Source: a virus (Duplodnaviria; Heunggongvirae; Uroviricota; Caudoviricetes). Taken from it: a stretch of DNA of 35,041 nucleotides. Below are positions 3,592-30,880 of the stretch, in pieces (positions within the stretch are counted from its first letter, which is position 1; the number at the start of each line of letters is the position of its first letter). A program made the position numbers and the translations under genes. The stretch is taken from the IMG/VR virus record IMGVR_UViG_2778261545_000002; one strand, written 5' to 3'. Under the pieces are notes generated by a model. That model was not told the origin of the DNA. It ran no database searches and saw only the letters and a program-made list of their open reading frames with translations.

Positions 3592-6039
3592 TTAACCGTC
3601 ATGCATCATGCTGGCACGGGCGCGCGCACGTTTATCCCGCTCGTATTTTTCGAGCGCATCCTGTAACTGGCGGTCAAGCTGTGTCTCCGGCGCAGTACCG
3701 CCCGTCAGGCTGATGTGATATTCGTTTTTACTCTGGTCCACATAAGAGCGGCCAGCCGGTGCCGTGACCGGCTGATAAGCCTGATAGCCTGCATAAGAGC
3801 TGGTCGCCGGAATATAACCACCGGTGCCATACGTGGCGGCATTAGTCCTTGCGGCGGTCTGGTCAAGTGTGTCTGACTCTTTGTTGATAACACCGAGTTT
3901 TTCCAGTACCCAGTCAATACCACTGCGCAGTTTGTTGAACGCATTAAGCGGCAGCATCAACGCGTCAGCCAGTGCCTGCCCGAACATGACGCCCGTGTCA
4001 CGGCAACGGTTCAGGGTGTCCTGTGTGGCTTTAACCGGGGCAATCAGGTTTTTAAACCACTGCCACGCGGCCTGTAACTTTTCTCCCAGCCAGTCAAACA
4101 CCGGCTTAAGTGGCGTGAACAGTTCCCCCACCGGCGCAAATGCCGCTTTCAGCCCTTCCACCACACCGCCAAAGAATGCGCTGACAGGCTCCCAGTATTT
4201 ACGGATAAGCAACGCCCCGGCGACAATGGCGGCCACCACAGCCACAACCGGCCAGCTAATCGCCCCGATGGCCGTCATAACGGCACTGCCAACCGTCGTG
4301 AAGATTGCCCCCATTGCGCCTGCTGCCGCGATGATGGCATTGATGCCGGTGATAACCGGCCAGGCTACAAGGCCAATGGCACCGATGATGCCAGTAAGCG
4401 CCAGCGCGCCACCGGCAATGATGCCGATGGTTGACGCCAGTGATTTGTTTTTCTGGATCCAGCCGTCGAGTTTTAACACATACTTTGTGGCTGTCTGCGT
4501 GAGCTTACGCAGCGCGCCTTCCTGCTGGTCAAACAGGTCAGTCCCCACCGCCTCATAAGCGGACTGAAACTCCTTAAAGTCACCGCCGAGGTTATCCTGC
4601 ATGATTTTAACCAGCTCTTCCGTTTTACCGTCCGAGGCTTTCAGCGTGGCGGTCAGCTTATCCAGTTTTCCGCTTGCTGCCGCTGCCAGTAAAACGTTCG
4701 CTGATTTCAGGGCTTCCTCACCAAAAATGGTTTTAAGGTATTCCCCCTTCTGAGACGTTCCCAGCTTGTGTTTATCAAAGCTGGCCTGAATCTCTTTCAG
4801 AATGGTGAATAACGGACGCATATTTCCCTTTTTGTCCGAGGTTTTCACGCCAAGCTCTTTGAGTGCATCCCATGCTTTTCCAGTCGGTGCCTGTAATCGG
4901 GTGACAACGGCACTGCTACCCGTCCCCGCCATTGACCCCCTGATGTTATTGTCATGCAGCACACCTGTCATGGCTGCTGCCTGCTCAAGACTTACACCTG
5001 CCGTCCTCGCAACCGGCCCGAGGTAAGTCAGTGCATCACTGAGTCCCTGAAAATCAGCCGCCGACTTATTCATCGTTGCCGACAACACGTCGCCCACATG
5101 GCTGACATCATCATTTGACAGTTGAAAGGATGCCTTAGTCCCCAGCAACAGTTGCGCGTTTTCTTCCATCGACCGCTGATTCGCCAGTGCCATATTCAGC
5201 GTGACCGGCGTTGCCGCCTGAATAGCCGCAGCATCTCCACCCGCTTTCGCAATGATAATCTGTGCACCGGCTGCATCATCTGCCGAGGCTGCGGTATTGT
5301 CGCCGAGCTGGCGCGCCTGCTTGCGGAGTGCGGTCATTTCGGCGGAGTCTTTTGCCACACCGAGCACAGCCTGTAATTCTGAGTTTTTCTGCGCAAACTC
5401 ATAACCGGGCATCAGCAGCTTAACTCCGGCCATCGTTCCCGCAGCTGCAATCCCCACACCGGCAGCGCCCACTGAGGCCATATTTCCGGCCAGTTCCTTT
5501 CCTGCCTGATAACGCTGTTTGACTGCGTTAAGTTTTACCTGTTGTGCACTGACACGCGCCAGCGCGTCACGCTGACGGTTAAGCTGTGCGGTGGTTTCAC
5601 TGATACGGTTTTTCAGTCCCTGCTCATCATGTGCAAGATTGCGGGTATTAATTCCCACAACGGCCAGTTCCCGCTGCTGGCGTTTAACAGAATCCGTCAG
5701 GCGGTTATATTTCGCCTGTAAGTCCTCCGCCGCACGCTTTGCGGATTCCAGCACTTTCGCCTGAGCACGGGTCGGACGTTCGGTGTTTTTAAACTGTGTG
5801 GCAAGGGCTTCGGCTTCCTGCCGAGCCTTTTCAAGTGCATGACCAGTCACGGCGAGCTGTGCACTGGTCTTGCGAAATCCCTCAATACGGGATGCCTGAC
5901 CGTTCAGCTCGCGCAGTGATTTTTGTGTTTCCCGGATATCCCCCGACAGCGATTTGCTCGCTGTGCGGATGGATTTAAACGGGCGGGATGCCTGGTCAAC
6001 AGCCCTGAGCAATACCTGTAATTTTACATTGTTACTCAT
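3592..6039 (-). CDS. T: Tail tape measure protein T (815 aa)
   Basis: 815 aa as in P2 gpT; Ala/Gly-rich hydrophobic central segment typical of tape measure proteins; synteny. Confidence 0.88.
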   Translation of the reverse strand: MSNNVKLQVLLRAVDQASRPFKSIRTASKSLSGDIRETQKSLRELNGQASRIEGFRKTSAQLAVTGHALEKARQEAEALATQFKNTERPTRAQAKVLESAKRAAEDLQAKYNRLTDSVKRQQRELAVVGINTRNLAHDEQGLKNRISETTAQLNRQRDALARVSAQQVKLNAVKQRYQAGKELAGNMASVGAAGVGIAAAGTMAGVKLLMPGYEFAQKNSELQAVLGVAKDSAEMTALRKQARQLGDNTAASADDAAGAQIIIAKAGGDAAAIQAATPVTLNMALANQRSMEENAQLLLGTKASFQLSNDDVSHVGDVLSATMNKSAADFQGLSDALTYLGPVARTAGVSLEQAAAMTGVLHDNNIRGSMAGTGSSAVVTRLQAPTGKAWDALKELGVKTSDKKGNMRPLFTILKEIQASFDKHKLGTSQKGEYLKTIFGEEALKSANVLLAAAASGKLDKLTATLKASDGKTEELVKIMQDNLGGDFKEFQSAYEAVGTDLFDQQEGALRKLTQTATKYVLKLDGWIQKNKSLASTIGIIAGGALALTGIIGAIGLVAWPVITGINAIIAAAGAMGAIFTTVGSAVMTAIGAISWPVVAVVAAIVAGALLIRKYWEPVSAFFGGVVEGLKAAFAPVGELFTPLKPVFDWLGEKLQAAWQWFKNLIAPVKATQDTLNRCRDTGVMFGQALADALMLPLNAFNKLRSGIDWVLEKLGVINKESDTLDQTAARTNAATYGTGGYIPATSSYAGYQAYQPVTAPAGRSYVDQSKNEYHISLTGGTAPETQLDRQLQDALEKYERDKRARARASMMHDG

Positions 6040-8454: not shown

Positions 8455-8623
8455 TAACCTTTTAGAGTGTAATTTTCCAAGAAATATAGCATTATCAAAT
8501 TAGCAAAAGGCATTAGATGATTTTATATTCATTTCATTAGCCGCAAGTTAGGTATGGACCGATGAGAGATGATTACAGAAATCAGTCGGATCATTTTACA
8601 GTACTTTATGAGTGTGGATTGCT

Positions 8624-10420
8624 ATGAGTAAAACCTACCAAGAAATTATTACAGAACTGATTGATCGCATTTATCAAAAGAAGAATACATCAGAAACTAC
8701 TAAGATCATATTGAAAGCACACTTTACTCAGACATCTTCTAGCAGAAACTTGACCTTAGATACGCTGGGTAAACTACCTGAACTCAAGAAAGAGGTCACG
8801 AGAGAAAGAGCACGTCAGATCATATCAAAATTCTTAAATCAAGACTTGCCGTCAGAACTAAGTCGGCTCAACCGAGGCTTGGTAGCAGGTGATACGATTA
8901 CCCTAGCTGCGAAAACTGACCTTATTCAATTGAAGAAATTGATTGAAATATTAATCGGAAAAATAACGACCACTAAAAAACCAGTATTTTCAAATAAAGT
9001 CCAAAGCACTCTTATAGCAGCAGGTGTAATTGATAGTAACATTTATCTTCCTATAGTTACTCAGTTAGCAAAATCATTCGAAATAAATGCACATTTCAAA
9101 TTTCATGAATATAATGGACATCAAATCATACTGGAAGAAAATCATAATCCCAAATCCATTACTAGCGATTTAATCACATATGCCGGAAAGATATCAACGT
9201 ATTTTGGTGGTTTATTTTCAATAGAAAAACTTGCTGTTTGTTCATGGGAGTCAGACCCTCCTGGTTTTATTAGGGAAATTCCTGATGAAATTAAGGTGCA
9301 ATATATATCTGACTTAATTTCAACTGAAGAAGATTTTTTATCTATTTCTAATGGACGTTTTTATGCTTTCACGTCTCGTGACGAAAGAGTTAGTCGAATT
9401 CTCAAACCAATTTTTATTCATTATAAAAACCCACTAAAAGTTGAAAGAGTTATATCTGCTTTAAAAAGGGCCCTTACACACAACTTCCGTCGTAGTGCAG
9501 ATGCCCGTCAACCCCCCTGCCTAGAGCTTCTAGAAAGCGCCGATGGTGCTCTGGACGATTATTGTTTGAAAACTGGATTACTACAAGAGTCAACACCCGG
9601 TTATAGAATACCTGGAGATAGCCTTTATTCAGAACTCCAATTGGAAGATGTCAGTGGTACTATCCATTATCAAGTTATTGCCTTAAATGCTATAAAATCA
9701 AATGGTGGCCCCTTAGACTCAATGAGCATTGGTAGGGAATTAAAAGGGAAAATCCCGCAAGCTTTCAAATCATTGATTTTTAGTTATCCAACCTTGTATT
9801 ACAAAGAAGGTGGCGGGAGACGAAATGATTACTACAAACCACTTGATGATGAATATATTCCAACCAAGCAAGTGGCTCGGCCTATCGATACCAGAATGGA
9901 AAGAATAGATAGTATAAGAAGAAAAATAACAGACATCATAAGCGAATTGGATTCACTAGATGTGCTGGGAACCTTTTTAAGAAAGACTCGTGCAGAACAA
10001 GCATTACTTCGAGAATACCTGCTCCTTCAACAATCGCTGTTATATAGCAATGAAAATAATGTAGGGGTCTGTGAGATTTGCGGAAATTCATGGCCGCATG
10101 CTATTCTCATTGCTGCGCATGTGAAACCTAGATCTAAATGCACACATGAAGAGCGAGCAGATTTCGATAACATAGCAATGTTGCAATGTGCAATATGTGA
10201 TTCACTTTTCGAAAATGGTTTCATTGCCATTCGTTCAGATGGAAAAGTTGCAATTAGCCGAGATAAAAAAATGACCACACACCTTGCGCAAATGTATTCT
10301 ACAATCGAAAGAAGAACCATTCCTTACGTCAACGGAAACACAAACCGTATGAAATACATACAATACCATTGGGTGAATATATTCAAAGGTGAAAGTTCTT
10401 TATTTGATATTAAATCGTAG
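8624..10420 (+). CDS. Cargo protein in the P2 Z/fun hotspot: N-terminal sigma-70 region-4-like HTH plus C-terminal HNH (4-Cys, AHxxP-type) nuclease motif; candidate anti-phage defence or abortive-infection nuclease
   Basis: AT-rich ORF on the opposite strand to the flanking late genes. N-term ...TLDTLGKLPELKKEVTRERARQIISKFL resembles the sigma-70 r4 HTH; C-term CEICGNSWPHAILIAAHVKPRSKCTHEERADFDNIAMLQCAICDSLFENGF fits a C-x2-C...H...N...C-x2-C HNH. Start is ambiguous between GTG 8612 (track) and ATG 8624; neither has a strong Shine-Dalgarno. Confidence 0.7.
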   Translation: MSKTYQEIITELIDRIYQKKNTSETTKIILKAHFTQTSSSRNLTLDTLGKLPELKKEVTRERARQIISKFLNQDLPSELSRLNRGLVAGDTITLAAKTDLIQLKKLIEILIGKITTTKKPVFSNKVQSTLIAAGVIDSNIYLPIVTQLAKSFEINAHFKFHEYNGHQIILEENHNPKSITSDLITYAGKISTYFGGLFSIEKLAVCSWESDPPGFIREIPDEIKVQYISDLISTEEDFLSISNGRFYAFTSRDERVSRILKPIFIHYKNPLKVERVISALKRALTHNFRRSADARQPPCLELLESADGALDDYCLKTGLLQESTPGYRIPGDSLYSELQLEDVSGTIHYQVIALNAIKSNGGPLDSMSIGRELKGKIPQAFKSLIFSYPTLYYKEGGGRRNDYYKPLDDEYIPTKQVARPIDTRMERIDSIRRKITDIISELDSLDVLGTFLRKTRAEQALLREYLLLQQSLLYSNENNVGVCEICGNSWPHAILIAAHVKPRSKCTHEERADFDNIAMLQCAICDSLFENGFIAIRSDGKVAISRDKKMTTHLAQMYSTIERRTIPYVNGNTNRMKYIQYHWVNIFKGESSLFDIKS

Positions 10421-10524
10421 ATCTGTATCCAGATATAAGTAAGAACTAGGGCTCTAAACCCTTTATAGTATTGAGGGATTATTGAGAAATATTAATAAAC
10501 GTAATATCAATGCTCTTTTGATGC

Positions 10525-22161: not shown

Positions 22162-22334
22162 TGTCAGGAGTCCTGAATAGTGATTAGAGGAGTCACATGT
22201 CGGCATCAGTTTCCCGACGATGCGCATCCTCCGCCATCAGTCCCGGATGGCTTATCACTGACACAACAGCACCTTAGCGAATCGCGGGGCGCGACTCAGT
22301 AGCCTTGCCGTGTATTCATCACGGCGAGGTATTC

Positions 22335-24107
22335 ATGACCATCACCACAGACACCACTCTTTTACACGACCCGCGTCGTCAGGCGGCGCTGCTGTACTGG
22401 CAGGGATTTTCCGTGCCGCAGATTGCCGCCATGTTGCAGATGAAACGCCCGACGGTGCAGAGCTGGAAACAGCGCGACGGCTGGGACAGCGTTGCCCCCA
22501 TCAGCCGTGTCGAAATGAGTCTGGAAGCGCGGCTGACCCAGCTCATCATCAAACCGCAGAAAACCGGCAGTGACTTCAAGGAAATTGACCTGCTGGGACG
22601 CCAGATTGAACGACTGGCACGGGTCAACCGCTACAGCCAGACCGGCAACGAGGCAGACCTTAATCCGAACGTCGCTAACCGCAACAAAGGCGGGCGTCGC
22701 AAACCGAAAAAGAATTTTTTCAGTGACGAGGCCATCGAAAAGCTGGAGCAGATTTTCTTTGAGCAGTCTTTCGAATATCAGTTGCACTGGTATCGCGCCG
22801 GGCTTGAGCACCGCATCCGCGATATCCTGAAATCCCGTCAGATTGGCGCGACGTTTTATTTTTCCCGCGAGGCGCTGCTGCGCGCCCTGAAAACCGGTCA
22901 TAACCAGATTTTTCTGTCGGCCAGTAAAACGCAGGCGTATGTGTTCCGCGAATACATCATTGCCTTTGCCCGGCTGGTTGACGTTGACCTGACCGGTGAC
23001 CCGATTGTCCTGGGCAATAACGGTGCAAAACTGATTTTTCTCGGCACCAACTCCAACACCGCACAGAGCCATAACGGCGACCTGTACGTCGATGAGATTT
23101 TCTGGATCCCGAATTTTCAGGTACTGCGTAAGGTGGCATCAGGTATGGCCTCACAGAGTCACCTGCGCTCGACCTATTTCTCCACCCCGTCCACGCTGGC
23201 GCACGACGCCTATCCGTTCTGGTCCGGTGAACTGTTTAACCGGGGACGCGCCAGCGCCGCTGAACGCGTGGAAATCGACGTCAGTCATAACGCACTTGCC
23301 GGAGGTCTTCTCTGTGCGGACGGCCAGTGGCGGCAGATTGTCACCATTGAGGACGCGCTGAAAGGCGGCTGCACGCTGTTCGACATTGAGCAGCTCAAAC
23401 GCGAAAACAGCGCCGACGATTTTAAAAACCTGTTCATGTGTGAATTTGTTGACGACAAGGCGTCAGTGTTCCCGTTCGAGGAGCTGCAACGCTGCATGGT
23501 CGACACGCTGGAAGAATGGGAAGACTACGCGCCGTTTGCCACCAATCCGTTCGGCTCCCGCCCGGTATGGATTGGTTACGACCCGTCACACCGTGGCGAC
23601 AGCGCCGGATGCGTGGTGCTGGCACCGCCGGTGGTGGCCGGTGGCAAATTCAGAATACTTGAGCGCCATCAGTGGAAAGGCATGGACTTTGCCACCCAGG
23701 CGGAATCCATCCGCAAACTCACCGAAAAATACAACGTCGAATACATCGGTATTGATGCCACCGGCCTCGGTGTCGGCGTGTTCCAGCTCGTGCGCTCGTT
23801 CTATCCCGCCGCGCGCGACATCCGCTACACGCCGGAAATGAAAACCGCAATGGTACTCAAGGCAAAAGACGTTATCCGCCGTGGCTGTCTGGAATATGAC
23901 GTCAGCGCCACCGACATCACCAGCTCGTTCATGGCTATCCGCAAGACCATGACCAGCAGCGGACGCAGCGCCACCTATGAGGCCAGCCGCAGCGAGGAAG
24001 CCAGCCACGCCGACCTCGCCTGGGCGACCATGCACGCCCTGTTAAATGAGCCACTCACCGCCGGTATCAGCACCCCGCTGACATCCACCATTCTGGAGTT
24101 TTACTGA
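22335..24107 (+). CDS. P: Terminase large (ATPase) subunit P (590 aa)
   Basis: Begins MTITTDTTLLHDPRRQAALLYWQGFSVPQIAAMLQ...; 590 aa from the internal Met; transcribed divergently from O as in P2. Confidence 0.88.
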   Translation: MTITTDTTLLHDPRRQAALLYWQGFSVPQIAAMLQMKRPTVQSWKQRDGWDSVAPISRVEMSLEARLTQLIIKPQKTGSDFKEIDLLGRQIERLARVNRYSQTGNEADLNPNVANRNKGGRRKPKKNFFSDEAIEKLEQIFFEQSFEYQLHWYRAGLEHRIRDILKSRQIGATFYFSREALLRALKTGHNQIFLSASKTQAYVFREYIIAFARLVDVDLTGDPIVLGNNGAKLIFLGTNSNTAQSHNGDLYVDEIFWIPNFQVLRKVASGMASQSHLRSTYFSTPSTLAHDAYPFWSGELFNRGRASAAERVEIDVSHNALAGGLLCADGQWRQIVTIEDALKGGCTLFDIEQLKRENSADDFKNLFMCEFVDDKASVFPFEELQRCMVDTLEEWEDYAPFATNPFGSRPVWIGYDPSHRGDSAGCVVLAPPVVAGGKFRILERHQWKGMDFATQAESIRKLTEKYNVEYIGIDATGLGVGVFQLVRSFYPAARDIRYTPEMKTAMVLKAKDVIRRGCLEYDVSATDITSSFMAIRKTMTSSGRSATYEASRSEEASHADLAWATMHALLNEPLTAGISTPLTSTILEFY

Positions 24108-25141
24108 TGAGCAAGAAAAAAGGGAAAACACCGCGACCTGCGGCAAAAACAATGACCGCCAGCGCCCCGAAAATGGAGGCATTCACCTTTGGTGAGCCGG
24201 TGCCGGTACTCGACCGCCGTGACATTCTGGATTACGTCGAGTGTATCAGTAACGGCAGATGGTATGAGCCACCGGTCAGCTTTACCGGTCTGGCAAAAAG
24301 CCTGCGTGCTGCCGTGCATCACAGCTCACCGATTTACGTCAAACGCAATATTCTGGCCTCGACATTTATCCCGCATCCGTGGCTTTCCCAGCAGGATTTC
24401 AGCCGCTTTGTGCTGGATTTTCTGGTGTTCGGTAATGCGTTTCTGGAAAAGCGTTACAGCACCACCGGTAAGGTCATCAGACTGGAAACCTCACCGGCAA
24501 AATATACCCGCCGTGGCGTGGAGGAGGATATTTACTGGTGGGTGCCGTCCTTCAACGAGCCGACAGCCTTCGCGCCCGGCTCCGTGTTTCATCTGCTGGA
24601 GCCGGATATTAATCAGGAGCTGTACGGCCTGCCGGAATATCTCAGCGCCCTTAACTCTGCCTGGCTGAATGAGTCGGCCACGCTGTTCCGCCGCAAGTAT
24701 TACGAAAACGGCGCGCATGCCGGATACATCATGTACGTCACCGATGCCGTGCAGGATCGCAACGATATCGAAATGCTTCGCGAAAACATGGTGAAGTCGA
24801 AAGGCCGCAATAACTTTAAAAATCTGTTTCTCTATGCCCCACAGGGGAAAGCCGACGGCATTAAAATTATCCCGCTCAGTGAAGTGGCAACGAAGGACGA
24901 TTTTTTTAATATCAAAAAAGCCAGCGCCGCTGACCTGCTGGACGCGCACCGCATCCCCTTTCAGTTGATGGGCGGCAAGCCGGAGAACGTCGGGTCGCTG
25001 GGTGATATTGAGAAAGTGGCAAAGGTCTTTGTCCGCAATGAGCTTATCCCGTTGCAGGACAGGATCCGCGAGATAAACGGCTGGCTCGGTCAGGAGGTCA
25101 TCCGCTTTAAAAACTACTCACTGGACACTGACAACGGCTGA
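24107..25141 (+). CDS. Q: Portal protein Q (344 aa)
   Basis: Length and synteny with P2 gpQ; start overlaps the P stop. Confidence 0.88.
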   Translation: MSKKKGKTPRPAAKTMTASAPKMEAFTFGEPVPVLDRRDILDYVECISNGRWYEPPVSFTGLAKSLRAAVHHSSPIYVKRNILASTFIPHPWLSQQDFSRFVLDFLVFGNAFLEKRYSTTGKVIRLETSPAKYTRRGVEEDIYWWVPSFNEPTAFAPGSVFHLLEPDINQELYGLPEYLSALNSAWLNESATLFRRKYYENGAHAGYIMYVTDAVQDRNDIEMLRENMVKSKGRNNFKNLFLYAPQGKADGIKIIPLSEVATKDDFFNIKKASAADLLDAHRIPFQLMGGKPENVGSLGDIEKVAKVFVRNELIPLQDRIREINGWLGQEVIRFKNYSLDTDNG

Positions 25142-25145
25142 ACAT

Positions 25146-25168
25146 CGCCGCCTGCGGGCGGCTTTTTT
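25146..25168 (+). terminator. Intrinsic terminator downstream of Q
   Basis: Stem GCCGCC / GGCGGC with loop TGCG, followed by T6 (25163..25168). Confidence 0.7.
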
Positions 25169-25311
25169 ACACCCCCGTCATCACGCCCTCACACGCTCAC
25201 CACCGCACAAAACAGCCCGCAGGCAAACCAACGCCCCGGCGCACACTCTAAACGCCATCACGACGCGCTCAGACGCTGAAAAAATAAAATCAGCACCACC
25301 GCCAGCGCGCA

Positions 25312-25330
25312 GTGCTTTCCCCGCCTCGCC
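25312..25330. other. cos site: P2-type 19-nt cohesive end
   Basis: GTGCTTTCCCCGCCTCGCC is the exact reverse complement of the remembered P2 cohesive end GGCGAGGCGGGGAAAGCAC; located downstream of Q as in P2. Confidence 0.8.
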
Positions 25331-25524
25331 CGCCCGCTTCATGAGGCGGTTTTGATGCACCTTAATAAAACTAATGAACCATCAGTTTTTCTAGTCAAAA
25401 GCCAAGCCATATCACAGTTTCCCTTAATGCAATCTCATGCACCCTTGAATGCAACGAGTATAAAATGTAAAAAAACGTTTCGTATGAACTCATTGCATAC
25501 AAATAGCACATTTAAGGAAAAATA

Positions 25525-27285
25525 ATGACTGTACGTCTTGCTTCAGTTTCAATTAGCAACTTTCGTTCTTGTAAGGCAACATCGGCTATTTTGCGCCCCT
25601 TTACTGCTTTAGTTGGTTATAATAACGCAGGAAAATCAAATATCATCTTAGCAATTAAGTGGCTGTTAGATGGCTCTTTGATTTCAGAATCAGATGTGTA
25701 CGATCCTACACACCCCGTATCCGTTGAAGGCGTTATTCAAGGTATAACAGATGATACTCTATCTTTGTTAACAGAAGAGAATCAACAAAAAATAGCTCCG
25801 TTTATAATTGACGGGACTCTTACCTTTGCAAGAAGACAGGAATTTAATAAGGAAACAGGAAAAGTCAAAAAAAGTCTGGATGTATATGATGGCACCACGT
25901 GGAAGAAAAACCCTGGCGGCATAGATGGTGCAATTTCCAATATATTTCCGGAACCAATTCATATCCCTGCAATGTCTGACGCCGTCGAAGACTCAACAAA
26001 ATGTAAAAATACGACCACAATAGGAAAGATACTTTCCGCAATTGTTTCTGAAATAAAGCAAGAGCACGAAGAGAAATTCTCAAAAAATATATCAGAAATA
26101 GGTAAATATCTTTCTCACAACGGTGAGAACAGATTAGAAAGCCTTAATAAAATAGACTCGGGTGTAAATAAAAAAGTAAACCAATTTTTTCCTGACGTAA
26201 GTGTAAAGTTACACTTTCCCACACCGACATTAGATGAAATATTTAAATCCGGAACCCTGAAAGTTTTTGAGTCTCGGGAAGATGAACCAGTAATGAGAGA
26301 TATCAGCCGATTTGGTCACGGAACACAACGTTCCATTCAAATGGCATTAATTCAATACCTGGCCGAAATAAAAAAAGAAAACAGCGAATCAAAAAAATCA
26401 AATACTTTAATTTTCATTGATGAACCTGAGTTATATTTACACCCTTCAGCTATTAATTCTGTCAGAGAATCACTTGTCACATTAAGTGAATCAGGGTATC
26501 AGGTTATAATATCAACTCACTCAGCCAGTATGCTTTCTGCAAAGCACGCAGCAAATGCGATTCAGGTTTGTAAGGATTCTAATGGAACCATAGCAAGGAA
26601 GACCATATCTGAAAAAATCGAAGAATTATATAAGTCTTCATCACCGCAATTGCACTCAGCATTCACACTATCAAATTCATCATATTTCTTATTTTCAGAA
26701 GAAGTTTTGCTTGTTGAAGGAAAAACAGAGACAAACGTCCTATATGCACTTTATAAAAAAATTAACGGACATGAACTCAACCCAAGTAAAATCTGCATTG
26801 TTGCCGTTGACGGTAAGGGTAGTTTATTTAAGATGTCACAAATCATCAATGCCATTGGTATAAGAACAAGAATTCTAGCTGATTGTGATTTCTTATCAAA
26901 CATCCTATTAACAGAGCATAAAGACTTACTTAGTACTGAATGTGATAATCTCTTGACTGCTTTGACTGAATCAATCAACTCAGGCGAGCTTAATTTAAAT
27001 ACAAAAGTCACTACTTTTGAGTCATTCAAAAGCATTTCAAGCAAAGACTTCATCAAAATATGTAATCATGAAAAAACACAAAAACATATACATGAAATCC
27101 ATCAAAAATTGAAAGATAATGGAATCTATATATGGAAATCCGGTGATATAGAAGCTGTTTATGGATTTGGTAAAAAACAAACTGAATGGGATAGTCTTTT
27201 AGATTGTTTATGTGATGAAAGCAAAGATGTTAGAGCAGTAATAAAAAAATATGATGAAATGGAAGATTTCATTAAATGGATTTAA
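25525..27285 (+). CDS. old: OLD-family ATPase/Toprim nuclease (P2 Old-like, 586 aa)
   Basis: Walker A GYNNAGKSN, Walker B-like LIFIDEPELYLHP, Toprim-like LVEGKTE and ADCDF motifs; AT-rich; RBS AAGGA upstream of the ATG; same length and position as P2 old. Confidence 0.8.
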   Translation: MTVRLASVSISNFRSCKATSAILRPFTALVGYNNAGKSNIILAIKWLLDGSLISESDVYDPTHPVSVEGVIQGITDDTLSLLTEENQQKIAPFIIDGTLTFARRQEFNKETGKVKKSLDVYDGTTWKKNPGGIDGAISNIFPEPIHIPAMSDAVEDSTKCKNTTTIGKILSAIVSEIKQEHEEKFSKNISEIGKYLSHNGENRLESLNKIDSGVNKKVNQFFPDVSVKLHFPTPTLDEIFKSGTLKVFESREDEPVMRDISRFGHGTQRSIQMALIQYLAEIKKENSESKKSNTLIFIDEPELYLHPSAINSVRESLVTLSESGYQVIISTHSASMLSAKHAANAIQVCKDSNGTIARKTISEKIEELYKSSSPQLHSAFTLSNSSYFLFSEEVLLVEGKTETNVLYALYKKINGHELNPSKICIVAVDGKGSLFKMSQIINAIGIRTRILADCDFLSNILLTEHKDLLSTECDNLLTALTESINSGELNLNTKVTTFESFKSISSKDFIKICNHEKTQKHIHEIHQKLKDNGIYIWKSGDIEAVYGFGKKQTEWDSLLDCLCDESKDVRAVIKKYDEMEDFIKWI

Positions 27286-27468
27286 TTTAATCTGATACGA
27301 TTACAGCGCAGTACTAAACCAATAGTGATAGGCTGTGCTGTTCCCAAAGATGGTGATCTCAAAATCAGAATGTGTTATAAATTAGCCAATCAAAAAACCT
27401 AAGCACACAAACAAATCAATCATTACGATTTACAATGATGAAAATATTATGATACAAAAGGAGTTGAT

Positions 27469-28230
27469 ATGAATAACATGGAGATTTTGAAAGCCGTAAA
27501 AGCTGGAATGAAAAAGTCAGCCAAAGCTACTTATTTAATGGATTTCAGTTCCGGTGGAAAAATAAACACTGAATATGTAGCTACCGTATCTATAGGTCAA
27601 TCCTTGATTAAAATAACATCTTTTCATCATGGTGATTACAAGATCATATTTGAATACCATACAAATAAATTCATTAATGCAACAGTCCCTTTATCGAAAC
27701 GGCATGACCCCAACAATATATTCTCAAGACACATTATCAGAAAAAATGCAAACACAAAAAGACCAGGCAGAATCGATATTGCCATATTGGACAGTAGATC
27801 ATTTTTCGAGACTCCTATATGTGCAATAGAAGTTAAAGGAAACAACCCTAGTAAAAAACTTTTATTTTCTGACATAAGAAGAAATCTTGAATACTTTAAA
27901 CACACAGGTCCTACGGGGAGTTCAAGCCTTGAACTAGCATTAAACTGTTTATTCCATTCATACAATGATTCAACTAAAAAAAATTACTGCACTACAATCC
28001 ACCATAAGGAAGACATGATAAGGAAATTAAAAAACAAATATAAAAAATACATATCTGAATTAAATAAAGAAATTCCAGATGATATATCTGTTACAATTGA
28101 TGTTTTTACAGCAGCAGAGCATTTACTATCTCCTGATGCTGACCAATATGAATACGAATCACATATAGATGACTTACATTTGACGCTTGGCGTTATGGTT
28201 ATATTCGAACGAAAATCGATACTCAATTGA
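27469..28230 (+). CDS. tin: Tin-like protein (253 aa), assigned by position; possible PD-(D/E)xK-like motif
   Basis: AT-rich ORF directly after old, where P2 carries tin; RBS AAAGGAG; GRIDIAILD...ICAIEVK resembles a D...E-x-K nuclease core, but this is a weak motif-level call. Confidence 0.5.
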   Translation: MNNMEILKAVKAGMKKSAKATYLMDFSSGGKINTEYVATVSIGQSLIKITSFHHGDYKIIFEYHTNKFINATVPLSKRHDPNNIFSRHIIRKNANTKRPGRIDIAILDSRSFFETPICAIEVKGNNPSKKLLFSDIRRNLEYFKHTGPTGSSSLELALNCLFHSYNDSTKKNYCTTIHHKEDMIRKLKNKYKKYISELNKEIPDDISVTIDVFTAAEHLLSPDADQYEYESHIDDLHLTLGVMVIFERKSILN

Positions 28231-28268
28231 TATTATTTGTGGCTTAGAATAATTTGCTTATTTACAAT

Positions 28269-28598
28269 TTAAAGCAAATATATTGCCACCGTTCTTCGCC
28301 TTAGATTTATAAAAAATGTGGAGGATACTGCCAGCTTGACAGTCAGCGGCAGTATCTCACCTAGTATTCTGTGCAGCAAGACATAATCTTCCAGCCAGTC
28401 TGACAGGTCAGTAACATCTGTTATCTGGGCTTCAACCTTTCGCCCCGTAAACACACCCTGCACCCATTCATGCAAAATCAACGTGTCCCCGCGCTCATAA
28501 TTACGGTCATTTTTCCGAAACTCTGCGCGTTTCTTTCCTTCCAGCACAAGGTCAAAATATTTTGCGTGCAGCTTTACCTCGTGAATTTTTGCCATCAT
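28269..28598 (-). CDS. Small protein downstream of A (P2 orf91 position), ASCH/PUA-like
   Basis: Start ATG overlaps the A stop (ATGA); HEVKLHAKYFDLVLEGKKRAEFRKNDRNYERGDTLIL resembles ASCH-type domains. Track ORF trimmed to the internal Met. Confidence 0.5.
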   Translation of the reverse strand: MMAKIHEVKLHAKYFDLVLEGKKRAEFRKNDRNYERGDTLILHEWVQGVFTGRKVEAQITDVTDLSDWLEDYVLLHRILGEILPLTVKLAVSSTFFINLRRRTVAIYLL

Positions 28599-30880
28599 TT
28601 CCACTCCATTACTGTTGAGAATCCCGGCCACTCATCAGCGACCGGATACGTGAATTTTTTCCCGTCATAATTTACGGTCGCGCCACGCGCCAGCGCCTCA
28701 AGCTCCCATCGCTGCGGCCTGATACCGTTCTGAGCAAGGTCAACGCGGATACGGGTAATTTGCATTCTTTCCGACCGGGTCAGTCTGGCCGATGGTGCAA
28801 TTTCATGTGGTTTTAACGGGCTTCCGTTTCTTTGCTGACGGTTTGGCGTTCTCAGGTCGTGTTTTAATGCACCCCTGAGCGCCCTCACGACCTCCGGGTC
28901 ATTCCATTCGATAACACCATCATCAACCAGATTAAGCACTGCTGCGGCGTGTTCAGAAGGCGTGGGAGCCGGTGACGAAGTATCACCACTGGTGAGCTTT
29001 CCACAGTTATTGACAGGACTCCGAGGCGCGGCGATGCCGCTTTTTAAAGTCAAAGGCTCAACGACCGGCACTTTCGGAACAATGCGCCAGTTCGTCGTTC
29101 TGGTGATATGAATATGACGCGCGCCGAGATGCGGCGCGTAAATGCCGACCACTCTCTCGACTTCTTCCTCGTACTCGTTAACTTCATCCGACGGACTACG
29201 GGCGACCCTGACAGTCTGACAATCGCGCGGGACATTTGCCCCACCCTGCGCGCTGATATACAGCGCAAAATCGCCACTGTCTGCGGCAGCGCGTGCAGCC
29301 TCGACGCGTTCGTCAAACTCATCAGCAATGCTGACGCCGCGAGGTAATTTGCGTAGTTCACGGTAAGCCCCCATTGTCGGCAGGCCAACCGTTTTAAATT
29401 GCGGAATGCGCCACGTTGACGCCCATGCGGTAACAGCCGCGGCAGTGTCTTTCAGCGGCCTGCCGGTATCGTTATCGAGCTGACCATCCAGTGCATAGCC
29501 GTCGATGTTTTTTGAAATGTATTTCGCGATATACCCCGCAGCACCGCCCCGGTTAAGGTGTTTTGCCTGAAAACGGTTTCGCGCGGCTCCTCTTTCGTCG
29601 CCATCCTCTTTGAGCGCATAGCGACGCATGATTTCGATAATCTGGTTACGCTGGCGCGGATTACAAAAAAGCATCATATGCCAGTGCGGCGTTCCGTCGT
29701 GGTGTGGCTCGACGACACGCAAACCGTAGACCTGTAAATCATTATCCTTGAATGCCGTGCGCATCAGGCTCCAGATACGGCAGAGATAACGCTGCGCATC
29801 CTTTGGATTAAATGCCTCATCGTTCCAGCCGTGATTTAGCTGGACGGTTTTACTTTCGCCTTTTCTGACCTGACGTGTCGGGTGATACTTTGACGGCGCG
29901 GTCAGCGTGATAAACATCCCCACATCACCCTCTGCTGCGGCGTAACGCTCAATACCGGCAATGGTGTTCATCAGCTCCATCCGGCGAATTTCAGGATTAG
30001 AAATACTGCCCATCACCTTACTGATAAGGTCGATGCGCTCGCCGGTTTCCCTGTTTTCAAGGTCACACGCTTTAAGAAATTCCAGATTTGCCTGGCGGCG
30101 CGCACGCACATCACGAATGGCATGTTTACTGGCATAAGGAGAACGGTCTTTATTGACCTCCCCGACAGCTATCAGTAACGCCTCATGCCAGCGCATACGC
30201 TGGCCTTTAAGCTGATGAGTCCACCACTCATCGTTAAACAGGCGGGCAATGGCAGAATATGCCTGCCTCGTGGTCATCTGTCCTTTACGGTATTTTTTCC
30301 AGTAGAGCGGGGAAATATTGAAAGCACGTGCAGCGCCAGCAACATGACCATAGAGGTGAGCCTGCGCCTCATCCGTAAACAGCGATTCTTTTTCGCCATG
30401 TGCATCAACCCAGGCATCGCAGAGTTCCTCATACATCATGAAAAGCTGCGATGAGATACGGGCAGCAAACTTTTTCAGCTCCTTGTCATTCATTCCCGGC
30501 AGGCGCGCATAGTGGTCACGCTCTGCCAGAAACAGCAACGACGCGTCGGTGTTCATTTCATGGCGCTGATTCACACGCTCAATGCGCGGCCATAAACGAC
30601 GCTGAAAAGTGGATGTGAGGAAATAAAACCCGTGCACCGGGCTTTTATTGCGCCGGATGTAGTCATAACGTGAAGTAAACAGCGAGCGCAAAAAGTAAGG
30701 CAGGCGGTTAATCGTGGATAAAACACCTTGCACCTGACGCATCTCGTCACGTGTAAGGGGTCTTTCGCGCCCGACAGCCTCGCGTGGCGCGTTCCATGCA
30801 TAAGCACCGGTAAACGTCTTACCGGTGCCTGCGGCAAATGCTGACGGAGGGACAAAACGCCCGGAGGCTTTAACGGCCAT
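28595..30880 (-). CDS. A: Replication initiation protein A, rolling-circle nickase (761 aa)
   Basis: From the internal Met MAVKASGRFVPPSAFAAGTG... the length is 761 aa, as P2 gpA; sequence matches my recollection of P2 A over its length. Confidence 0.88.
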   Translation of the reverse strand: MAVKASGRFVPPSAFAAGTGKTFTGAYAWNAPREAVGRERPLTRDEMRQVQGVLSTINRLPYFLRSLFTSRYDYIRRNKSPVHGFYFLTSTFQRRLWPRIERVNQRHEMNTDASLLFLAERDHYARLPGMNDKELKKFAARISSQLFMMYEELCDAWVDAHGEKESLFTDEAQAHLYGHVAGAARAFNISPLYWKKYRKGQMTTRQAYSAIARLFNDEWWTHQLKGQRMRWHEALLIAVGEVNKDRSPYASKHAIRDVRARRQANLEFLKACDLENRETGERIDLISKVMGSISNPEIRRMELMNTIAGIERYAAAEGDVGMFITLTAPSKYHPTRQVRKGESKTVQLNHGWNDEAFNPKDAQRYLCRIWSLMRTAFKDNDLQVYGLRVVEPHHDGTPHWHMMLFCNPRQRNQIIEIMRRYALKEDGDERGAARNRFQAKHLNRGGAAGYIAKYISKNIDGYALDGQLDNDTGRPLKDTAAAVTAWASTWRIPQFKTVGLPTMGAYRELRKLPRGVSIADEFDERVEAARAAADSGDFALYISAQGGANVPRDCQTVRVARSPSDEVNEYEEEVERVVGIYAPHLGARHIHITRTTNWRIVPKVPVVEPLTLKSGIAAPRSPVNNCGKLTSGDTSSPAPTPSEHAAAVLNLVDDGVIEWNDPEVVRALRGALKHDLRTPNRQQRNGSPLKPHEIAPSARLTRSERMQITRIRVDLAQNGIRPQRWELEALARGATVNYDGKKFTYPVADEWPGFSTVMEWK

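Follow-up and report, generated by a model that had tools for sequence, protein, structure and literature searches.

The AT-rich block directly past the P2 cos site in the window (the whole 35,041-nucleotide stretch of viral DNA analysed here) is, by homology at the DNA and protein levels, the lysogenic-conversion operon old-tin; the prophage is of the P2 type (Peduovirus), and the operon lies in its gpQ/cos-gpA hotspot. The best joint explanation of the evidence, which we consider very probable, is a P2-type old-tin operon whose two products, Old and Tin, would each act alone; within it, Tin is proposed to be a catalytic PD-(D/E)xK enzyme. The locus itself is already known and ordinary: earlier work has described old-tin, cloned it, and demonstrated its activity. 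Few prophage-encoded exclusion genes have been known for as long as old and tin, and maps of the hotspot already cover thousands of P2-like prophages. What is new is confined to Tin, which resembles a nuclease of the restriction-enzyme type and has a strictly conserved active site.

Architecture and borders of the locus

The block spans ca. 3 kb and encodes two proteins of 586 and 253 amino acids (Table 1). Its composition departs sharply from that of the surrounding DNA, with a GC content of 0.29-0.38 in each 500-nt window across 25501-28500 versus 0.51-0.60 (ca. 0.55) on both sides; together with the alignment of the cohesive end to the annotated cosR of P2, these values bear out the sequence-only reading, which had placed an AT-rich block immediately after cos. 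The order and spacing of old and tin, as well as their promoter context, are those of phage P2, and the DNA comprising old, tin, orf91, and gene A is 95.2% identical to that of P2. At the left border, the position equivalent to gpQ in E. coli VL7S7 is annotated as a phage portal protein. On the right side, orf91 occurs in many P2-like phages lacking old-tin, as a conserved neighbour outside the cargo.

Table 1. Features of the old-tin locus and of the additional AT-rich cargo; positions refer to the window
Feature	Position	Strand	Description
HNH cargo	8612..10420	+	602-aa protein with a C-terminal HNH motif; AT-rich cargo (GC 0.33-0.40) in the Z/fun slot, between the tail-fibre assembly gene and the sheath gene FI
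gpQ	24107..25141	+	Portal gene (ORF, 344 aa); left hotspot border
cos	25312..25330		19-nt P2 right cohesive end, GTGCTTTCCCCGCCTCGCC on the + strand; base-for-base match to the annotated cosR of P2 (AF063097)
old-tin promoter	25445..25481	+	Putative; -35 TTGAAT (25445-25450), 17-nt spacer, -10 TAAAAA (25468-25473); hexamers read from the sequence
old	25525..27285	+	Intact ORF, 586 aa; ABC-ATPase + TOPRIM nuclease
old-tin spacer	27286..27468	+	Intergenic; the divergent mosaic segment (27300-28000) begins here
tin	27469..28230	+	Intact ORF, 253 aa; T-even exclusion protein with a predicted PD-(D/E)xK fold
orf91	28269..28598	-	DUF3850/ASCH (Pfam DUF3850 5.6e-17, ASCH 2e-10); position of P2 orf91
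gene A	28595..30880	-	Replication endonuclease, P2 gpA by alignment and annotation; right hotspot border

The gpA-gpQ defence hotspot of P2-like prophages was defined by Rousset et al. 2022 (PMC9122126); in the same study, old-tin cloned from this site conferred protection. The locus in the window shows no structural difference from that description: it has the same borders, a variable and compositionally atypical AT-rich cargo adjacent to cos, conserved gpQ/cos and orf91/gpA flanks, and, as its occupant, old-tin, the reference cargo of the hotspot. This cargo is rare, present in 17 of 5426 complete E. coli genomes and, among 50,697 phage records, in P2 only, though about 78-80 records carry the same flanks. 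A repeat search over the locus returned short, chance-level repeats and no flanking recombination sites.

By homology with P2, old-tin would be transcribed in the lysogen from its own promoter. The transcript starts, at 25479 and 25481, are transferred through the alignment from the P2 annotation ("transcript start 1/2; old-tin mRNA"), and from this correspondence we infer the promoter and the starts in the window. A promoter and terminator scan gave counts no higher than those of shuffled sequences and missed the old-tin promoter, because its -10 hexamer lacks the final T. A 57-aa ORF at 25352-25525 was rejected as a gene: its span runs into the promoter and leader, no family matches it, and the P2 annotation lacks it.

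Old

The 586-aa protein is identical to P2 Old (AAD03309, a Class 1 OLD-family protein) at 580 of 586 positions (99%), and the PADLOC Old model matches it over its full length (1e-214, residues 3-586). Pfam matches above their cut-offs comprise (i) AAA_15 (3e-28), (ii) AAA_21 (9e-20), and (iii) OLD-like_TOPRIM (2.3e-17, residues 389-455), in addition to a match to SMC_N (3e-10). The ATPase motifs are intact, including the Walker A GKS with K37, the Walker B D299/E300, and the H-loop H332, and all TOPRIM residues (E398, E402, D453, and D455) are present. The assignment first made from the letters alone, an OLD-family protein of 586 residues combining a Walker A/B ATPase with Toprim motifs, is thus upheld by families, motifs, and identity to P2 Old. 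Compared to P2 Old, the protein has the same length, is likewise encoded by the first gene past cos downstream of the same promoter region, and retains the catalytic residues; the six substitutions (S18A, A114V, L388F, K447R, I481T, and S490N) fall at none of the known catalytic positions, and the dN/dS of old relative to P2 is 0.03.

P2 Old alone defends, and mutation of H332 or E402 (E402A) abolishes this defence; a tRNase/tetramer model has also been proposed for the P2 protein (10.64898/2026.07.10.737580). Both residues are present in the window Old. Following that model, Old, in which an ABC-ATPase sensor is joined to a TOPRIM nuclease, would act by itself, resting as an inactive tetramer that would open into dimers on aberrant DNA or ssDNA hairpins at the replicating phage origin, or on DNA defects in recB cells; the dimers would then cut tRNAs and the infection would be aborted. 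Lambda exclusion, lethality in recB/recC hosts, and tRNA cleavage are properties of the P2 protein that would carry over to the window Old by homology.

Allelic variation and mosaicism of Tin

The 253-aa protein aligns without gaps to P2 Tin (AAD03308), with 221 of 253 identical residues (87%), and the PADLOC Tin model covers its full length (8.7e-100, residues 2-249). It has the same length as its P2 counterpart and lies in the same place, between old and orf91, and the homology search against P2 confirms, as it does for Old, the sequence-only reading of a Tin-like protein at the tin position. Of the 32 substitutions relative to P2 Tin, 31 lie within residues 1-161, and the protein is a chimera: residues 1-165 resemble another E. 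coli allele (cluster P0001, seven differences), and residues 166-253 resemble P2 Tin (one difference). At the DNA level, the divergent segment starts in the old-tin spacer, with 11-13 mismatches per 100 nt and a 9-nt indel relative to P2, versus ca. 2.5 per 100 nt inside old; the dN/dS of tin codons 1-165 is 0.47. Many of the substitutions are located in the segment 79-99, a low-confidence region of the structural model.

All Tevenvirinae tested, and no other phages, were sensitive to Tin (PMC8594841), and escape mutations map to gp32, the ssDNA-binding protein, according to papers citing Mosig 1997. By homology with P2 Tin, gp32-dependent exclusion of T-even phages would extend to the window Tin. 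With 32 residues changed relative to the P2 allele that was assayed, this protein could act on a different range of phages.

Predicted fold and active site of Tin

The D...E-x-K motif noticed in the sequence-only reading is real and corresponds to D103 ... E121-V-K123. The loose form of the pattern is not above chance, occurring in 90% of shuffled Tin sequences, and a stricter form with hydrophobic context occurs in 4%; the motif is significant because of its conservation and fold only, and not because of the pattern itself. E35, E62, D103, E121, K123, D135, and R138 are invariant in 65 of 65 Tin homologues of 19-47% identity, in a family with a mean column identity of 24% and 195 cluster representatives.

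An AF2 model based on a multiple sequence alignment (pLDDT 84.8, pTM 0.85) replaced a single-sequence AlphaFold prediction (pLDDT 39). In this model, the helix 34-47 carries E35, D103 begins the strand 101-108, and E121 and K123 are placed in the next strand, 115-125. The structure prediction, envisaged from the start as a check on the motif, places D103, E121, and K123 in the canonical PD-(D/E)xK layout: the model comprises the alpha-beta-beta-beta-alpha-beta core fold of the superfamily, with its characteristic residues, namely an Asp on strand 2, a (D/E)xK on strand 3, and an upstream acidic residue.

The window Tin has no Pfam match, and no Pfam nuclease family reached threshold in sets of 23 and 65 members of the family. 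Among the 65 members, HSDR_N and HSDR_N_2, which we take to be nuclease domains of the PD-(D/E)xK fold, match in 2-3 members below threshold, being the sole Pfam families with more than two members matching, or with two at E < 0.1. Foldseek searches retrieved nothing significant from the PDB, where the best match had an E of 0.06 and methyltransferases and Schlafens ranked high, and only weak, non-significant matches from BFVD, and family profile searches against PDB sequences produced only chance matches. The species-representative genomes of GTDB, scanned with Tin peptide patterns, yielded no relative; the broader Tin alignment contains no stretch conserved enough for such a pattern scan. 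Compared to restriction endonucleases of the BamHI/OkrAI/BglII type and to NucC, all PD-(D/E)xK enzymes, Tin shows ca. 10% identity with no sequence-level relationship, and it is accompanied by neither a methyltransferase nor a cyclic-nucleotide synthase partner. In the literature searched, no paper calls Tin a nuclease or gives it a fold.

The invariance of E35, E62, D103, E121, and K123 down to 19% identity, with nearly all else varying, weighs against a non-catalytic poison, in which stoichiometric binding of T-even gp32 or gp32-ssDNA filaments would block replication and the fold would serve as a DNA-binding or oligomerising scaffold: in nuclease folds that have become inactive, the catalytic residues are normally lost. 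Inactive PD-(D/E)xK scaffolds do exist in other families, a precedent that speaks for the poison, as does the fact that no nuclease family is significant by sequence; the classical account of stoichiometric gp32 "poisoning" with no need for catalysis, which Mosig et al. 1997, as relayed by citing papers, put forward in their title and conclusion, points the same way. On balance, we find a non-catalytic Tin conceivable but rather unlikely. That the nuclease-fold assignment is an artefact, with a generic alpha/beta sandwich carrying a D...ExK by chance, appears improbable. Tin is probably a catalytic PD-(D/E)xK nuclease and not a passive gp32 poison.

Tin would act alone, as a single 253-aa protein blocking T-even phages in a gp32-dependent manner. 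As a catalytic PD-(D/E)xK (restriction-endonuclease-fold) enzyme, with E35/E62, D103, E121, and K123 as putative catalytic residues, it would act on, or be switched on by, gp32-coated replication intermediates, and not just sequester gp32. A fuller proposal has, in our judgement, an even chance of being right: Tin would be a stand-alone PD-(D/E)xK nuclease founding a family of ca. 250-aa single-gene morons, T-even exclusion would depend on its E35/E62/D103/E121/K123 catalytic site, gp32-coated ssDNA would recruit or activate it, and the variable segment 79-99 would determine which phage ssDNA-binding proteins it recognises.

Phages also escape DARNA, Hna, AbpAB, and retron-Eco8 through mutations in ssDNA-binding proteins, and in DARNA, ssDNA bound to the phage protein activates the effector, a nuclease (10.64898/2026.02.22.705581). 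Tin shares with these systems the link between escape and the ssDNA-binding protein, whereas the domains are unrelated, DARNA being a HEPN RNase; activation of Tin by gp32-ssDNA is put forward as a hypothesis. If true, Tin, whose mechanism has so far rested on the 1997 "poisoning" model, would become one of a rising number of defence systems keyed to the ssDNA-binding proteins of phages.

Independence of Old and Tin

Tin homologues occur in five different contexts without an old neighbour, including P4-like/AlpA islands, positions beside an integrase, and the interior of P2-like tail modules, and Tin is considered independent of Old because its homologues lie without old; a dependence of Tin on Old was rejected from these gene contexts. 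Were Old and Tin mutually dependent parts of a single two-component system, this would account for their joint promoter and mRNA in P2 (annotation), their cloning together (PMC9122126), and the listing of "Old-tin" as one entry (PMC10952713). This arrangement is nonetheless very improbable, given that, assayed separately, Old and Tin acted on different ranges of phages (PMC8594841), that Old by itself is sufficient for defence (10.64898/2026.07.10.737580), and that the two genes diverge differently, with the contrasting dN/dS of old and tin codons 1-165 and a mosaic tin.

Additional cargo

The 602-aa HNH protein matches Pfam HNH_2 at the cut-off (E 3e-4) and PADLOC HNH models partially (5.6e-9), and is found in one of 5426 complete E. 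coli genomes. The recombinant tin allele and this very rare cargo illustrate the modular swapping of defence cargo, a phenomenon already described. P2 itself has also been described with three defence loci (fun, tin, and old); in the window, the fun/Z slot is occupied by the HNH cargo, a candidate third defence locus.

The old-tin operon

The prophage is of P2 type (Peduovirus), oriented opposite to the standard P2 map, and beyond cos it carries an AT-rich block, with a GC content of 0.29-0.38 in each 500-nt segment of 25501-28500 and 0.51-0.60 in both flanks, that comprises two ORFs of 586 and 253 amino acids. This GC drop and ORF layout match the description given by the sequence-only reading, which had proposed an OLD-family protein of the same length as P2 Old and a Tin-like protein at the tin position; homology search bears out both assignments. 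The first product is identical to P2 Old at 580/586 positions and the second to P2 Tin at 221/253 without gaps, and both match the corresponding PADLOC models over their full length (Old, 1e-214; Tin, 8.7e-100). A megablast search of 25150-28700 against 50,697 phage records returned phage P2 (AF063097/NC_001895) as the sole match to the whole cargo, with 95.2% DNA identity across old, tin, orf91 and A, whereas the flanks alone are common to another 76 records. Old comprises the Pfam domains AAA_15, AAA_21 and OLD-like_TOPRIM and retains K37, D299/E300, H332, E398/E402 and D453/D455; in P2 Old, mutation of H332 or E402 abolishes defence (10.64898/2026.07.10.737580). By sequence comparison, the region is the classical old-tin operon of P2, lying in a hotspot that was already known, in support of the earlier interpretation.

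Features of the old-tin region and of the Z/fun slot
Feature	Coordinates	Strand	Remarks
HNH protein, 602 aa	8612-10420	+	C-terminal HNH motif; long unannotated N-terminal part
Terminase P	22305-24107		
Portal Q	24107-25141		followed by cos
cos	25312-25330		19-nt P2 cohesive end; P2 annotation carried over by alignment
old-tin mRNA starts	25479 and 25481		two, mapped in P2; P2 annotation carried over by alignment
Promoter hexamers	just upstream of mRNA starts		-35 TTGAAT/-10 TAAAAA, 17 nt apart; read from the sequence
old	25525-27285	+	586-aa ORF
tin	27469-28230	+	253-aa ORF
orf91	28269-28598	-	DUF3850/ASCH-domain protein
Replication gene A	28595-30880	-	

At 25352-25525 (+), a 57-aa ORF overlaps the promoter and leader of old-tin; as it matches no family and is absent from the P2 annotation, it most likely does not represent a gene. 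The orf91 gene is kept beside gene A across many P2-like phages, regardless of cargo.

P2-like prophages have a defence hotspot in the gpA-gpQ region beside cos; it is filled by old and tin in the reference genome, and cloned old-tin confers broad protection (Rousset et al. 2022, PMC9122126). Old, Tin and Fun/Z were assayed as separate systems in the BASEL study, in which the Tin-sensitive phages comprise all Tevenvirinae, and Tevenvirinae only (PMC8594841), and a review lists three such genes in P2, namely fun, tin and old (PMC8987985). According to a 2026 preprint, Old is triggered by aberrant DNA in recB cells or by hairpins that ssDNA forms at the lambda origin; the inactive tetramer is then destabilised to dimers, opening the TOPRIM site for tRNA cleavage (10.64898/2026.07.10.737580). 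From these four sources, the locus with its position and role is already established, as is the idea that a single P2 prophage bears several defence loci; the value left to the locus lies in a prediction open to test, namely that Tin is a catalytic PD-(D/E)xK nuclease.

Predicted fold and active site of Tin

The D...E-x-K motif that the sequence-only reading had noted as possible corresponds to D103 ... E121-V-K123. The loose pattern is meaningless by itself, as it turns up in 90% of shuffled Tin sequences; its weight comes from conservation. Close relatives are few: a set of 5.8 billion proteins contains 23 clusters of them, whose named members belong to E. coli, Klebsiella, Morganella, Pectobacterium and Musicola. 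When 1.84 billion cluster representatives were searched with a profile, 195 proteins were recovered, nearly all single-domain and of 240-270 aa. Across an alignment of 65 full-length members, 19-47% identical to the prophage protein, invariance is confined to seven columns: E35, E62, D103, E121, K123, D135 and R138.

The AlphaFold model computed with the family alignment (pLDDT 84.8, pTM 0.85) predicts for five of these residues the arrangement that is canonical in the restriction-endonuclease fold: helix 34-47 begins with E35, strand 57-64 contains E62, D103 stands at the start of strand 101-108, and E121 and K123 share the next strand, 115-125, followed by helix 129-144. Fold comparison scored OkrAI highest (8.2), followed by BglII and a 'restriction endonuclease-like fold' protein (both 7.2), BamHI (6.9), and NucC, NgoMIV and BpuSI (6.5 each), with BstYI, Bse634I, PfoI, AgeI, Cfr10I and Cas4 below. 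Foldseek returned no significant match to the model in the PDB and only weak matches in BFVD, many annotated PD-(D/E)XK; family profile searches against PDB sequences gave no match, and no Pfam nuclease family exceeded threshold. No families other than HSDR_N_2 (three members) and HSDR_N (two) were matched by as many as three members, or by a pair at E < 0.1; both matches are sub-threshold, and the two families are nuclease domains of type I restriction enzymes. On balance, Tin very probably adopts a PD-(D/E)xK fold and is probably an active enzyme; that catalysis is needed for exclusion seems only slightly favoured. A description of Tin as a PD-(D/E)xK nuclease was not found in the literature searched, which lay mostly outside subscription journals, and priority is not claimed.

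Independence of old and tin, and proposed mechanism

Tin homologues occur (i) alone in AlpA/P4-like islands of Pectobacterium and Klebsiella; (ii) in Morganella, beside the integrase of a siphophage-type prophage without old; (iii) on the opposite strand, with the P2-type tail genes S and V to either side; and (iv) where a P2-type tail module ends, again without old. Because homologues stand alone in such varied slots and the proteins have been tested separately (PMC8594841), Tin is independent of Old, and the operon represents two single-gene systems on one promoter. The homologues in P4-like/AlpA islands adjoin H-NS-like or HTH genes, another slot is bordered by an integrase and a tail-fibre gene, and P2-like prophages have in the S-V slot one more cargo site.

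In a lysogen, the operon would be transcribed from its own promoter. Old would survey DNA and, on lambdoid replication or disabled RecBCD, cleave tRNA and abort infection, a step supported by published work and by 99% identity to P2 Old. Tin would block T-even replication in a gp32-dependent manner, as described in the literature, and we infer that it may do so through nuclease activity, being either drawn to gp32-coated ssDNA or activated by it. A parallel is proposed with other defences that have nuclease effectors and that phages escape via SSB mutations, such as DARNA, whose HEPN domain is unrelated to Tin. Tin substitutions cluster in segment 79-99, which the model renders with low confidence as a hairpin linking the first core strand to the second; this cluster could, speculatively, be a recognition element.

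Rarity and mosaic structure of the tin allele

The old-tin cargo is present in 17 of 5426 complete E. coli genomes, always in single copy and always chromosomal. Its closest relative, in E. coli VL7S7 (NZ_CM177009), shares 99.9% DNA identity; there the annotation splits tin (5090-5850 of locus L008) into two CDS (182 and 71 aa), apparently through a frameshift or an assembly error, whereas tin of the present prophage is intact. The ASCH gene adjoining the VL7S7 tin is also marked partial.

Mismatches to P2 per 100 nt number about 2.5 inside old, 8-17 in 27300-28000 and about 1 in 28000-28500; the middle segment, spanning the spacer and the first two thirds of tin, also has a 9-nt indel, compared with a flanking divergence of 1-3%. 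Segment 27300-28000 (the spacer plus tin codons 1-165) is thus mosaic. Relative to P2, dN/dS is 0.03 for old, indicative of strong purifying selection, and 0.47 for tin codons 1-165. Within Tin, 31 of the 32 substitutions fall in residues 1-161; the N-terminal 165 residues differ at seven positions from another E. coli allele (cluster P0001) and the C-terminal 88 at one from P2, so that the protein is a chimera of two alleles, P0001-like at the N-terminus and P2-like at the C-terminus.

A further AT-rich block in the Z/fun slot

The other AT-rich block (8500-10500, GC 0.33-0.40) lies between a tail-fibre assembly gene and the sheath gene FI, the Z/fun slot. Its 602-aa product matches Pfam HNH_2 exactly at the cut-off (E 3e-4) and the PADLOC HNH models partially (5.6e-9). 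The whole gene is found at 100% in one of the 5426 genomes, SBF45, which is not among the 17 with old-tin, so that the combination of old-tin with the HNH gene is absent from that collection. From its position, a defence role for the HNH protein is plausible.
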